Positions 7,273 through 59,329 are shown, counted from the stretch's first letter. The stretch is DNA of 64,000 nt from Octopus vulgaris (GCA_951406725.2 OX597815.1:139934001-139998000); one strand, 5' to 3'. A program made the numbers and translations. Notes: generated by a model from the sequence alone, not told the origin.

Positions 7273-7481
7273 ATACTCAGAAATCTGGATGGTTTTATAT
7301 TTACAAATATTTATGTCTCATGTTTTTATAAATTATATATTAGCGCTTGCGTCCACTCTAGTGGAGTCTTCAGATTGACTGAAGACTCCAGTGGACGCAA
7401 GCGCTAATATATGATTTATAAAAACATGTGACATATTAATAAATATCTATAAATATAAAAACCATCCAGATTTCTGAGTAT
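7273..7481. repeat. ~100-bp-arm fold-back with hammerhead-like cores at its centre
   Basis: tactcagaaatctggatgg...cag-attga-ctg...ccatccagatttctgagta. Confidence 0.9.
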
Positions 7482-7940
7482 CTTATTTCCTCTAATATAT
7501 AATACCTGTACATCACCTCCAAACCTTCTAATACATACGTATATATATATATATATATATATATATATATATATATATATATATACATATATATATACAT
7601 ATATATATACATATCTATATATATATATATATATATATATATATATATATATATACACATATATATATACATACATATATATATATATATACATACATAT
7701 ATACATACATATATATACATACATATATATATATATATATATTTATATATATACATACATACATATATATACATACACATATACATACATACATATATAT
7801 ATATACACATACATACATACATACATACATACATACATACATACATACACACGCATATATATATATACACATACATACATACATACATACATACATACAT
7901 ACATACATACATACATACACACGCATATATATATATATAT

Positions 7941-8172
7941 CATCATCATCATCATCATCATTTAGCGTCCGCTTTCCACGCTAGCATGGGTTGGACGGTT
8001 CAACTGGGGTCTGTGAAGCCAGAAGGCTGCATCAGGCCCAGTCTGATCTGGCAGTGTTTCTACGGCTGGATGCCCTTCCTAACGCCAACCACTCCGTGAG
8101 TGTAGCGGGTGCTTTTTACGTACCACCCGCACAAGTGCCAGACGGAGCTGGCAAACGGCCACGGACGGATGG
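7941..8172 (-). mobile_element. 3' part of a SINE/RTE-related repeat ending in (TGA)n
   Basis: Minus strand ggttggcgttaggaagggcatccagccgtag...cggacgctaaatgatgatg. Confidence 0.6.
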
Positions 8173-8996
8173 TATATATATATATATATGTATGTAGTTA
8201 AGGTGCGTGGCTCCGAACCATATCGAGATGGCTCTGTCTTGACGTTAAAAAGTGGTAGGTAAGCGGTATGCTGTTCGCAGGATATGGGGCGATACGTCTG
8301 TCATATCCTCATCTGGCGTAAAATGTGCGAAACTGAGCAATAACTCACTGTTGAATTTTACATGTTGCGGTGGCTGATCGTTGGTCGTCGAGCTTCCGAA
8401 ACTTATCTTGGTTGCTATTTCACTGTTGTTTCATAGACGTTGTCTTGAGATGATCTCGTTGACGAAAAAAACCCCGACAATCTTGTCAGAGATTTAACCG
8501 ATTCTAGTCTCTGGCAAAGGAGTTTTCCAGGGTGCTAATAAAATGACTGAAAAATGTAAGATAAAGAATTGTTGTGCAGTTGATAAAATCGATATCCTCA
8601 AAAAAGCCGGCCATAGAAACTCCGGAAATCGACCTTGTTCGCAGGGGCTTTCATGTTCACAATTGTTAATTTACGTAGGATGACGAAGGATGACGAAGGA
8701 ATAAAATAGGCAGAGGAAAAACGCCGCAATGAAAAATGTGAACGGATACTGGATGCTATGTTGTCGATGATAAGGCTAAAGAGGAAAACAAAAACTGGTA
8801 ATTACTGAACTTGAAATTTCCTGCTGGCAGATTTAATTGCTATTTCAAGCCAAGCGAAAGGGATACCCCGAAGTCCACAAGAATAGCGTGAAGAGGTAAT
8901 ATTTGAACGTTGGAAATTCTCGCACTCCAAATAATTGAAAGTATAAAATCTACTATAAAAGTTTTGCATTTGACTTTCACAAGTAGGCGTAGACGT

Positions 8997-9157
8997 AGGA
9001 GTGTTTGTGTGGTAAATAGCTTGCTTACAGACCACATGATTCCAGGTTCAGTTTCACTGCGTGGCACCTTGGGCAAGTGTCTTCTACTATAGCCTCGGGC
9101 CGACCAAAGCCTTGTGAGTGGATTTGGTAGGCGGGAACTAAAAGAAACCCGTCGCAT
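8997..9157 (+). mobile_element. SINE family 1, 5' half
   Basis: Matches 4801-4960. Confidence 0.82.
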
Positions 9158-9375
9158 ACACACACACACACATACACACACGCACACACATATATGTATA
9201 TATATTTTCAGCCTCATTTTCGCATTCTCAGCCAATTTCCACAGACTGTAAGGGCAGGCGCCAGTGGTAGTTAAGCACCCTTCCTATACCAAAGTGAGAG
9301 ACTGTGATTCCACAGCAGTACCGATACGCGGCCCACCTATAAATTTATGTCTTATTACACTTTTTACACAAATCC

Positions 9376-9726
9376 ACGAGCAGGTGCTGAAAAATTCCTG
9401 GTTTTGGGTAAGGAGGATCAACTAATTATGAGTTTACCCAACATATTCCCCTCTCAGATTCACACACTAATTGCAGCAGTCCTTCAGTTTTTCTAAGCTC
9501 TGTAAAAGAACACGGAAGATTGGACCTCAAAACAGGCCTTTTGCGATCCTCTTTAAATGAGGAACATTTTAGCACTCATTTAACATATTCCCCTCTCAGA
9601 TTCACACACTAATTGCAGCAGTCCTTCAGTTTTTCTAAGCTCTGTAAAAGAACACGGAAGATTGGACCTCAAAACAGGCCTTTGGCGATCCTCTTTAAAT
9701 GAGGAACATTTTAGCACTCATGTGTA
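9376..9726. mobile_element. mariner-like MITE with internal ~141-bp tandem duplication
   Basis: Imperfect TIRs gtgctgaaaaattcct / aggaacattttagcac; 9440-9580 repeated at 9582-9720. Confidence 0.6.
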
Positions 9727-56617: not shown

Positions 56618-56974
56618 AAATATTCAGATGAAATGAGGAAGTGGATAGGTGAACTGTGAAAGGCTCTTGATTGTGAAGTTTAATAGGTCATCAATTGTTT
56701 TAGTATTGAAGTGTGATTTCCGGTGCTGATCTTGTTGATATTGCTATTATTTAGTTGTGGTAAGAGTAGTAGTAGCAGTAAGACATGATGGCAATGATGC
56801 TGATGGGTCACTTGTGGTATTCCACGGAAAAGAGGAAGTAGATAGCTGAACTGTGAAGGGCTCTTGATTATGAATTGTGCCACTACTGATTTTAATTTTA
56901 ATGTTGAGGATGCTTTAGTTCAGTAATACATCTTTCTAGGGATTTTGGAGTGAAGCGGGGGGGGGTCTTATTTA

Positions 56975-57357
56975 CTCTTTACTCTTTTACTCTTTTACTC
57001 TTTTTCTTGTTTCAGTCATTTGACTGCGGCCATGCTGCAGCACCACCTTTTAGTACTTATTCTATCGGTCTCTTTTTGCCGAACCGCTAAGTGACGAGGA
57101 CGCAAACACACCAGCATCGGTTGTCAAGCAATGCTAGGGGGACAAACACAGACACACAAACACACACACATATACATATATATACATATATACAACAGGC
57201 TTCTTTCAGTTTCCGTCTACCAAATCCACTCACAAGGCATTGGTCGGCCCGGGGCTATAGCAGAAGACACTTGCCCAAGATGCCACGCAGTCGGACTGAA
57301 CCCGGAACCATGTGGTTGGTTAGCAAGCTACTTACCACACAGCCACTCCTGCGCCTA
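56975..57357 (-). mobile_element. SINE family 1
   Basis: Near-intact with internal deletion. Confidence 0.88.
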
Positions 57358-57659
57358 TTTATTTTAGTTTTTTGTTCATCTTTTGGGAAGAAACCTAACT
57401 TCAAGCAACCTTTTACAGATCAACTTTTAAACACTATTTTCTAGATCTGGGAAAGATACATAGGGAGTGCAATACTGAATTTTGCACTCCAGCAAAATTT
57501 TAAGGGGTGCAAGTGCACCACCTGCATCCCCTGTTCCCGGGCCCTTGCCCATACGCACTCATAATTTTAAGCTCGCCCACACACACATACACACGCGCTC
57601 GCCCCCATTCACACATACACACTAACACACTATTTTTACATATACACGTATATATATAG

Positions 57660-57917
57660 AGGGCGATTGGCCTGGTGGTTAGAGTGTTGCTCGCGAGATT
57701 GTGGTTTCAATTCCTACTTAATCTCACATTGCTCTGCAATCACATCGACACCTGACGCGTGCTACGCCGTGCACCTGTTCGAGCAACGTCGATTTGATGG
57801 AGGGAACGAGCTAATGTGTAGCACTTACATTTGATCACTATAAAGAAATCATTTGTGCAGGTCATTCGACAAAAAGCTGGAGACTCAGACGTCGTCTTCT
57901 GCGGGAGTGTCCATCAT
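57660..57917 (+). mobile_element. tRNA-derived SINE, third family, RTE-like tail
   Basis: tggcctggtggttag A-box, ggtttcaattcc B-box, tail cgtcttctgcgggagtgtccatcat. Confidence 0.6.
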
Positions 57918-59091
57918 ATCTATCTATCTATCTATCTATCTATCTATCTATCTATCTATCTATCTATCTATCTATCTATCTATCTATCTATCTGTCTGTC
58001 TGTCTGTCTGCCTGCCTGCCTGCCTGCCTGTCTGTCTGTCTGTCTGTCTATCTATCTATCTATCTATCTATCTATCTATCTATCTATCTATCTATCTATC
58101 TGTCTATCTATCTATCTCTGTCTGTCTGTCTGTCTGTCTGTCTGCCTGTCTGTCTGTCTGCCTGTCTGCCTGCCTGCCTGCCTGTCTGTCTGTCTGTCTG
58201 TCTGTCTATTTATCTATGTGTGTGTGTGAGTGTGAGGGTATGTGAACCTTAACTTCAAATAATTGAATAAACGTCACATATATTCAAGTATTTTTTTCTA
58301 TCTCCTGTATGTGCGAAAATCTATAAATGCACGCATACAAGTACACCCATTCACACACATACACTCATTTCTACGTGAATTTCTTTTTTTAGTCAAAGTA
58401 TTTTTTTTTCTCGATCAATATCCTGAATAAATTATTTGCTCGCGTAGATATTTAGCAATAAGTGTATGTTGAGAATTACGAAAGACACCGTACAACATAT
58501 GATTCCGTTTATTCTATGTAATCTATAATAATAATAAATAGCCTTACTTATGAAGTCATTTGGGGACAATCAATTCGTACGAAGAAGCCGGAGATGTGAA
58601 GGACCGAAAAGTACTCTCTGCATGGAAGCTGAATGAAATTTGAGTTGTTACATCCTTCTGCGATTTCTAGCTGGCATTTATAACTCAAAACTATTTTAGA
58701 ACAGAAGGGTAACTATATATTCTCCAATATAATGTCTTCAGTTCTTTCTCTCATTCCCATTCTCCCTCCTCACACATACGTACACACACACACACATAGT
58801 AAAACATGTGTGTAACTATATATTCTGAAATATAATGGTTTAATCCATATGTATCTTGTGGTATGTTATATAATCCTGTACACTGTTTGGTAAGTCTACA
58901 CTACCAAGTGATTTAATTTTGGATATTGACAAACATGTGAAACAGTTCAGCTGGCAGGATCTGATTTGGTCTCACTGCACCGAAACTGAAAAAGAAACAA
59001 TTGTGGTTCCGATGACAATCTTCAGGTTGTTCCATTTAAAGGTTCTCTCTAATGGTTCTAACCTATTGATTTAAAAGAACGGTAGAAAATA

Positions 59092-59329
59092 TAGTTCTAT
59101 ATTTAAGAAATGAGGAATTATTTACATTTGTCGGATATTTGTCCTTATCTTGTTTGTTGTTTACACAACATTTCGGCTGATATACCCTCCAGCCTTCATC
59201 AGGTGTTTTGGGGAAATTTCGAACTTGGGATCTCATTCCTCTTCTTCTTCTTCTTCTAGTCCCTGCCTGGAATCGAACTCGGAATCTTGGGGTTAGTAGC
59301 CCACGCTCTTAACCTCTACTCCCACGGGC
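59092..59329 (-). mobile_element. Composite: tRNA-like head + (AAG)n + hammerhead-containing tail
   Basis: Head 59329-59258 with GAGTTCGATTCC B-box; aacac CTGATGA a-ggctg..cagcc GAAA tg TT gtgt at 59207-59163. Confidence 0.65.

Follow-up and report, generated by a model that had tools for sequence, protein, structure and literature searches.

A 64-kb stretch of the Octopus vulgaris genome (G000:C2:139934001-139998000; the whole of this stretch is referred to here as the window) raised the question of whether the hammerhead ribozyme motifs scattered through it are genuine and what kind of element carries them. The window belongs to a 2.8-Gb genome in 227 contigs and is crowded with microsatellites and decayed retroelements. 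An initial annotation had proposed about 11 minimal type-I motifs (12 were listed), flanked by (TA)n and related to Penelope-like elements (PLEs) or retrozymes. Using a strict type-I descriptor, which demanded an exact CUGANGA/GAAA/UH core and stems I and II of at least 3 bp each, six matches were detected in the window, compared to a mean of 0.075 and a maximum of 1 in 40 local (block-wise) dinucleotide shuffles. These were 16042+, 32023-, 41969-, 53234+, 53811+ and 59202- (the position is that of the first core base and the sign is the strand). Addition of a perfect stem III palindrome to the descriptor left five matches in the window and none in the 40 shuffles. Most of the initially listed motifs were upheld, with good stems and an exact core in 41969-, 53234+, 53811+ and 59202-; one, 48047, was doubtful, and three motifs had been missed (16042+, 32023- and 41199-, the last with a U3-A8 core). 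When decayed and variant copies were included, the count rose to about 15 motifs, which were distributed over about 12 insertions and belonged to at least nine families, designated here by letters. The (TA)n flanks were confirmed, with (TA)≥3 within 350 nt downstream of 15/15 motif sites, which include inverted pairs that are not independent, compared to 43.5% of 5,000 random positions.

The abundance of these motifs was examined in 60 evenly placed 10-kb stretches of the genome (600 kb), with the strict descriptor also admitting U3-A8. Seventeen motifs were detected in 14 of the 60 stretches and none in four shuffles. With five strict matches in 64 kb compared to 17 in 600 kb, the window was approximately threefold richer than the sample, and a total of ∼79,000 strict motifs was extrapolated for the genome (Poisson range, 46,000 to 127,000, which is too narrow because matches cluster). 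The earlier figure of one motif per 6 kb was accurate for the window only if decayed copies were counted and did not hold as a genome figure, the window being richer than average. A check with Rfam, as had been suggested, found no hammerhead family among the window matches listed (150 of 202) and, at gathering score, none in six loci with clear motifs (including L191, L192, L193 and L129); of 73 candidates scored with RF00163 on the genome, only 6 were matches. As Rfam is blind to minimal forms, this result was no evidence either way.

The motifs were compared to the consensus of minimal PLE hammerheads, NNN CUGANGAH G..C GAAAN-palindrome-NUH NNN (Cervera and de la Pena 2014, PMC4209133; this and the other published systems are considered here from the available parts of the reports), and a match was observed, as expected from the initial assignment to several PLE- or retrozyme-type families. 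An exact CUGANGA...GAAA...UH core in type-I order was present in families C, D, E, F, G and H and in the A6 subfamilies of family A. Families A and F had both the G10.1-C11.1 pair and the extra nucleotide after A9, family C had an extra nucleotide on both sides, and family E had none. Several window copies departed from this form: the stem II closing pair was broken in families D (A-C at 53234), H and I, and the CG stem III word of 59202 had decayed to UG. Among the exact-core matches in the random sample, for which a palindrome was not demanded, 12/20 had a perfect stem III palindrome and four more were one change away. The claim that stem III consists of self-complementary words too short to fold alone was borne out by 9/9 words, none of which formed a hairpin in cis, while duplexes in trans had energies of −1.7 to −11.1 kcal/mol. 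Covariation, another of the suggested checks, was found in family H, in which 8/19 pairs exhibited two-sided change among nine sequences, a level reached in 0/500 shuffles, with the figure being inflated by kinship among these sequences; the set comprised the window copy and 8 of 14 BLAST-retrieved copies, with inverted twins and copies without a 5′ core excluded. Changes of AU to GC in stem II of family E were apparent by eye.

Family A was linked to protein-coding elements. The window copy with a GUAG loop (12935 to 13118, plus strand) is the 3′ end of a 5′-truncated PLE and ends in (TA)n. Its hammerhead (12994 to 13027) has an A6U core, CUGUAGA, followed by an extra A, a GAGC/GCUC stem II, a CG palindrome and a UA site. 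Two sister subfamilies with A6 were present on the same strand: one with a 3-nt loop (42430 to 42620; hammerhead at 42482 to 42514, with U4C in the core at 42485) and one with a UCC loop (48205 to 48390; hammerhead at 48282 to 48316, with an exact core at 48286 and a mismatched stem II). A typical family A copy was ∼190 nt with (TA)n at its end. In 30 loci picked by means of the GIY-YIG protein from L074, the motif lay 375 to 924 nt downstream of the GIY-YIG open reading frame (ORF) in 24; four had none and two were unrelated. All six loci with a long ORF (1,111 to 1,214 codons) carried the motif, and in three of them it was present in both pseudo-long terminal repeats (pseudo-LTRs), the repeats being 97 to 99% identical. 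For the two 3-nt-loop subfamilies, the ORF link was indirect and came from one internally deleted copy (L124:1137-1600), a family A element in which the ORF start ran straight into the 3′ end with the hammerhead. In the A-type element, the N-terminal extension is long (in L228, 1,080 amino acids counted from the first Met) and the 3′ untranslated region is of low complexity. PLE proteins were recognized only weakly by Pfam. These results indicated that family A motifs are located in the 3′ ends and pseudo-LTRs of coding PLEs.

The initial annotation had considered many of the copies to be probably dead through core mutation. Such mutations were indeed detected (for example, U4C at 42485 and GCAA at 7373 and 7379), but the A6U of the motif at 12997 is the family norm and not decay. 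Exact genome matches to the family A pattern numbered 16,723 with CUGU-N-GA and 3,707 with CUGA-N-GA, a ratio of 4.5 to 1, and both controls gave 0; U6 was also present in both pseudo-LTRs of intact elements. As selection on the core was to be avoided, copies were chosen by a 3′-flank word (20,661 matches), and the first ∼90 on contig C1, from its first 11 Mb, were taken. The resulting 93 rows, including the window copy, retained the motif in 73 and had lost it by truncation or deletion in 20. Position 6 was U in 71 of the 73 motif-bearing rows, with the other two being out of register, and N7 was U in 30, A in 24, C in 13 and G in 6. An alternative register with UUGAAGA as U3..A9 was ruled out by inspection, since it fails when N7 is A, C or G and stem II is lost.

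A tree was built from the flank columns of 70 rows, after the two out-of-register rows, an inverted twin, one L328 copy and the window copy were dropped and two A6 copies were added. U6 was present in 66/70 aligned copies. Changes shared by at least three copies were absent from the 27 structural columns (10 invariant core positions, the extra A, stems I and II and the palindrome), while N7 had 5, H17 had 3 and the downstream flank had 32 in 52 columns. Lineage-level change was thus detected in 19/52 flank columns but in 0/27 structural columns (Fisher P = 1.5e-4), a comparison in which the flank-built tree favors flank columns and the sample represents one contig arm. Within the motif, only N7 and H17 changed between U6 lineages, with H17 being G in 1/70 rows. 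The GUAG loop II also had no shared changes in its four columns; as the loop is as conserved as the motif, the constraint need not be catalytic. In a 30-row subset with seven sister-subfamily outgroups, A6 was basal and U6 lay on one side of a branch (support, 65/41). N7 changed repeatedly inside the U6 branch, where branch lengths reached 0.1 to 0.3 changes per column. This tree provided weak support for a single replacement of A6 by U in the most abundant lineage examined, after which the fold was apparently kept under selection. The family A 3′ end was also covered by contigs of four runs from four organisms, and no other letter was listed inside the motif; known N7 variants were likewise absent, so this listing was uninformative on motif variation.

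Two further families were linked to PLE ORFs. In family J, the window contains the GIY-YIG end of a 5′-truncated Neptune-like PLE (41346 to 41696, minus strand), copies of which elsewhere reach the reverse transcriptase (RT) and a CxxxxCxxC linker (CGRPNCATC). The presence of this fragment had been noted initially. Its linkage to the nearby motif at 41969 was rejected, as the two have different counterparts in the genome and adjoin at 41698, and the fragment proved to be a separate insertion with a hammerhead of its own (41168 to 41206, minus strand) ∼150 nt past the stop codon, with a U3-A8 core, UUGAAAA (41199), a 2-bp stem II and a CCGG word. ORF linkage of family J was found in 9/11 copies. 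Family F is represented by a PLE 3′ end at 59090 to 59330 (minus strand), which we take to be Poseidon-type from its motifs, PLE clades being assigned here by motif and not by tree. It carries a triplet repeat and a hammerhead at 59163 to 59206, and a tRNA-like block with A- and B-box-like words lies just before the hammerhead, at about 59255 to 59330. The block was seen also in L075, L021, L062 and L373, and box-like words preceded the motif in 28/54 copies by eye; no tRNA was found by ARAGORN in 30 loci, and there was no Rfam tRNA match. In a random sample, 3/6 family F heads continued upstream into a Poseidon-type ORF end, and in L075 and L021 the family follows broken ORF ends of this type. 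A free tRNA-derived short interspersed element (SINE) starting at the tRNA head was not supported, as half of the sampled heads ran into the ORF end. Inversion of the 5′ part was detected in 20/29 family F loci. Many short copies begin immediately 5′ of the A box; a short transcript driven by RNA polymerase III or an inversion hot spot could account for this.

Relatives of the family J type were observed outside the window. Young Neptune-like elements in L187 to L190 (G000:C16, C17 and C6) have a 781-codon ORF for RT and endonuclease (EN) with a second ORF of 333 to 479 codons upstream, and many copies of this family, which is related to J, have a 3′ U3-A8 hammerhead, UUGAUAA...GAAA CAUG UH. 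Another U3-A8 family with a CGCG word, found at L042:8667-9406 and L073:9809, occurs as 362-nt tandem and inverted copies. A Neptune-like family in L172 and L178 has the form UUGAUAA...GCAA CCGG UA, with GCAA in place of GAAA in both copies; as family I in the window also has GCAA, there may be a second shared variant of the core, A13C.

Families C and D presented a different arrangement. The family C insertion (41698 to 42101, minus strand) consists of ∼1.1 units of a circularly permuted, ORF-less repeat of 351 nt, with an intact hammerhead at 41933 to 41975 (core at 41969) and a CUAG word. The unit end was repeated upstream in 18/24 loci, a 5′ inversion was present in 14/24 and a PLE protein match in 0/24, and tandem dimers were found in L192 and L193. 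Family D (53130 to 53575, plus strand; hammerhead at 53228 to 53301, with a CCGG word) is a truncated copy with a 5′ inversion of an ORF-less unit with a period of ∼540 nt. The unit end was repeated upstream in 7/29 loci, the period was 529 to 558 nt in 8/29, and 5′ inversion was detected in 14/29; one neighboring Neptune ORF, in L149, was on the other strand. Most copies of the C and D units were ∼1.1 to 1.3 units long. From this arrangement, families C and D look like retrozymes with a cycle of their own. Their template may be a circle or an uncut multimer, because the inserts continue past the cleavage site over more than one unit length and stop at a constant point within the unit. Outside these two families, L191 (G000:C1:20002278-20004542) contains a 359-nt tandem array of five forward and two inverted units with seven identical intact hammerheads and a CCGG word, and it is the best candidate for an active retrozyme.

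No partner was found for the remaining families in the loci examined. Family B (31147 to 31510) is a single insertion containing an inverted duplicate, with cores at 31198- and 31461+, of which one copy has U4C and the other has U16.1C and a truncated stem I; its relatives are 77 to 85% identical and mostly have a CAGCUG word. Family E (53740 to 53940, plus strand) is a fold-back insertion with an intact hammerhead at 53806 to 53888, a long stem II and a CAUAUG word. Family G (hammerhead at 16036 to 16107, plus strand) has an exact core and a CCGG word, with no other copy among the examined loci, and family H (hammerhead at 31940 to 32029, minus strand) has an exact core, a 6-bp stem I, a CGAUCG word and the covarying relatives described above. 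Family I (7270 to 7490) is a fold-back insertion whose halves, 7373- and 7379+, have a GCGC word and GCAA for GAAA and are probably inactive. The two motifs initially noted at 7340 to 7405 were therefore present but constitute one insertion, as do those at 31198 and 31461. A same-strand PLE ORF within 1.6 kb was found in 0/30, 0/13 and 0/3 copies of families B, E and I, respectively, and in 1/13 copies of family H, where it belonged to a neighboring element with its own motif. In family B, no ORF was found within 1.5 kb in 24 loci and the unit end was repeated in 0/24.

These analyses led us to consider it highly probable that the motifs are minimal type-I hammerheads located at the 3′ ends or in the pseudo-LTRs of at least nine families of PLEs and ORF-less passengers. 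As parts of this reading, the elements likely enter (TA)n sites through reverse transcription, and cleavage of the RNA likely takes place only when two copies pair via the palindromic stem III. On the basis of element anatomy and the literature, a PLE would be transcribed through tandem pseudo-LTRs; the tandem or multimeric transcript would join two half-ribozymes via stem III, and cleavage would trim it. The RT-endonuclease would then copy the RNA into (TA)n sites, usually halting early and often flipping the 5′ part, with thousands of short motif-bearing stubs as the outcome, while C and D would be passengers whose template is either a circular RNA or a multimer left uncut. Single copies in the genome are, for the most part, likely to be inert fossils. 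Several observations weigh against this reading. Minimal PLE hammerheads cleave poorly or slowly in vitro even as dimers (PMC4209133), cleavage was absent from 8/9 dimers of Xenopus retrozymes (Li, Clavereau and Pollet 2026, bioRxiv 10.64898/2026.07.22.740005), changes in CUGA give low activity (PMC9901934), and a natural phage A6C variant cleaves at <0.1 per min (Perreault et al. 2011, PMC3088659). Cofolding of two copies gave a trans stem III in only 6/11 window motifs, the U6 motif not being among them. Families B, E, G, H and I gave no ORF link or tandem unit in the examined loci, which were picked for their resemblance to short copies in the window and reach only 1.5 kb, hiding long elements, and the PLE protein queries covered few clades. 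Chance matching in AT-rich repetitive DNA would fit the background obtained with relaxed descriptors (8 to 14 matches in each shuffled 600 kb when one mismatch in the core was allowed) and a loose genome-wide core-only pattern, which was dropped as a count because its reversed control was high (3,434 versus 2,453); one motif, 48047, may be such a match. The strict counts (5 or 6 versus approximately 0 in the window and 17 versus 0 in the sample) and the family A patterns, with controls of 0, refute it for every other motif, and its probability as a general explanation is negligible. The initial proposal, taken to mean that all of the motifs represent independent non-autonomous retrozyme families cycling as small circular RNAs, accords with the ORF-less, circularly permuted C and D units, the C dimers, the array at L191 (20.002 Mb on C1) and the short length of most family A copies, and its independent families hold for C and D. 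As a general statement it is refuted by families A, F and J, which run upstream into PLE ORFs, and no unit-end repeat was found in B or in F (0/29); it is very unlikely to apply throughout.

The state of the U6 motif was weighed separately from the preferred reading of PLE ends and passengers. The most likely state, at about even chances, is a slow but functional ribozyme assisted by a dimer partner or a protein. A broader proposal, which we advance tentatively and place on the doubtful side of even, is that the CUGU-N-GA lineage, hidden from CUGANGA descriptors, has been under hammerhead-type selection through several amplification waves. It would be either an active ribozyme in breach of the uridine-turn rule, with U6 rescued by the dimer, a loop or an element protein, or a signal derived from a former ribozyme, with loss of cleavage having helped U6 copies outnumber their canonical sisters. 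That the motif has little or no catalytic activity and is retained as a structural signal, for RT/EN binding, RNA dimerization or as part of a pseudo-LTR promoter, is doubtful. The published loss of activity on A6 changes (PMC3088659, PMC9901934), the unchanged GUAG loop, which points to a constraint wider than catalysis, the excess of U6 copies, whose spread cleavage loss may have aided, and the good proliferation of hammerhead-less Naiads (PMC8557442) all favor such a signal; the confinement of shared changes to N7 and H17, positions which hammerhead catalysis leaves free, with G17 in a single row, does not. It is unlikely that A6U was a neutral hitchhiker in a successful master element and that conservation merely reflects youth. 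The intact U6 elements are very young, as judged from their nearly identical pseudo-LTR pairs, and both the flank-based tree and the restriction of flank-selected copies to 11 Mb of one contig could exaggerate the contrast between flank and motif. The absence of lineage-level change from the structural columns compared to 19 flank columns argues against youth alone, as do the eight shared changes at N7 and H17, which were outside the tree-building columns, and the branch lengths within U6.

The role of hammerheads in EN+ PLEs has been stated to be unclear (Craig et al. 2021, PMC8557442). The A6 position is regarded as nearly essential. A young and intact U6 lineage with more than 16,000 exact copies, in which the rest of the motif has been kept, provides naturally paired material for asking whether PLE transposition depends on cleavage, and the function of PLE hammerheads could be probed directly by comparing A6 elements with their U6 sisters side by side. 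Furthermore, descriptor-based counts, and claims that some PLE families have no hammerhead, may miss core variants that are family wide. No report of an A6U hammerhead or of such motifs in cephalopods was found by title and abstract, with some figures, supplements and a paper on PLE variants (Lunse et al.) being outside this coverage.

Other features of the window were as follows. The doubtful motif at 48047+ (UUGAUGA...GAAA UCUG UC) lies in a fold-back unit at 47850 to 48090; it passed no descriptor used, its UCUG word is non-palindromic and its stem II is weak. Candidates at 45479+, 24524- and 59025- were unsupported, as the second half was weak or absent and there were no relatives among the examined loci, and 11891+ was rejected for a weak or absent second half. 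A repeat at 11810 to 12015 (plus strand), with relatives in L017, L021, L042 and L248, contains CUGAUGA, an extra A and GGG and has no GAAA half within 100 nt. A Pif1 helicase fragment (Helitron-like) at 15181 to 15700 lies directly upstream of the hammerhead unit at 16042. Non-LTR retrotransposons with zf-RVT and a restriction-like endonuclease-type end (R2/R4-like), inserted in (TTA)n, were represented at 1354 to 4450 and 24712 to 28198 by several fragments and a single long, decayed copy. A DUF7083 fragment was present at 55749 to 56057 (minus strand; Pfam E = 1e-17), and a zinc-knuckle-like stretch seen near it by eye suggests a gag remnant of an LTR element.

Comparison with the minimal hammerheads of metazoan PLEs (PMC4209133) revealed a common consensus, the extra nucleotide after A9 (in families A and F), a short helix I, a pseudo-LTR location, many families per genome with mostly single truncated copies, the U3-A8 variant and opposite-strand pairs 100 to 700 bp apart. 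The octopus motifs differ in the family-wide A6U and, in several families, in a very long stem II and 6-nt palindromes. They number tens of thousands compared to 2,000 to 9,000 in that report, with different descriptors, and Octopus is not among the hosts noted in the parts of it considered here. EN+ PLEs of the Neptune/Nematis and Penelope/Poseidon types (PMC8557442) share an RT with a C-terminal GIY-YIG domain, pseudo-LTRs (detected in the A type), a CX2-5CxxC linker (A and J types), 5′ truncation, an inverted 5′ copy and a preference for (TA)n; the truncated 5′ ends and inverted 5′ copies, the partial tandem arrangement and the insertion into microsatellites observed here are the PLE hallmarks described in that work. 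The long N-terminal extension of the A type and the tRNA-like block before the hammerhead in the Poseidon type set the octopus elements apart.

Animal non-LTR retrozymes (Cervera and de la Pena 2020, PMC7229834; bioRxiv 10.64898/2026.07.22.740005), which have been proposed to derive from PLE pseudo-LTRs, likewise have ORF-less units of 350 to 540 nt with one type-I hammerhead per unit and occur as monomers, dimers and arrays. The 2020 definition of these retrozymes includes a canonical hammerhead with a tertiary contact between loops 1 and 2. In contrast, the C and D units have minimal motifs of the dimer type, PLE-style 5′ inversions and, mostly, copies of ∼1.1 to 1.3 units. The Sm-alpha and Sj-alpha SINE-like elements of Schistosoma (PMC6765202) resemble family F in that their type-I hammerhead comes after a promoter block, whereas the family F block is internal to the 3′ end of a protein-coding PLE in 3/6 random copies. 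Among natural core variants (PMC3088659), position 6 is variable and U3-A8 is a known compensatory pair. Such variants are rare in that report, while A6U predominates here in a lineage that has more than 16,000 exact copies and intact elements. Overall, these comparisons indicated that the constellation of motifs is mostly a published pattern in a further host and that the new feature is a family-wide A6U under apparent selection.

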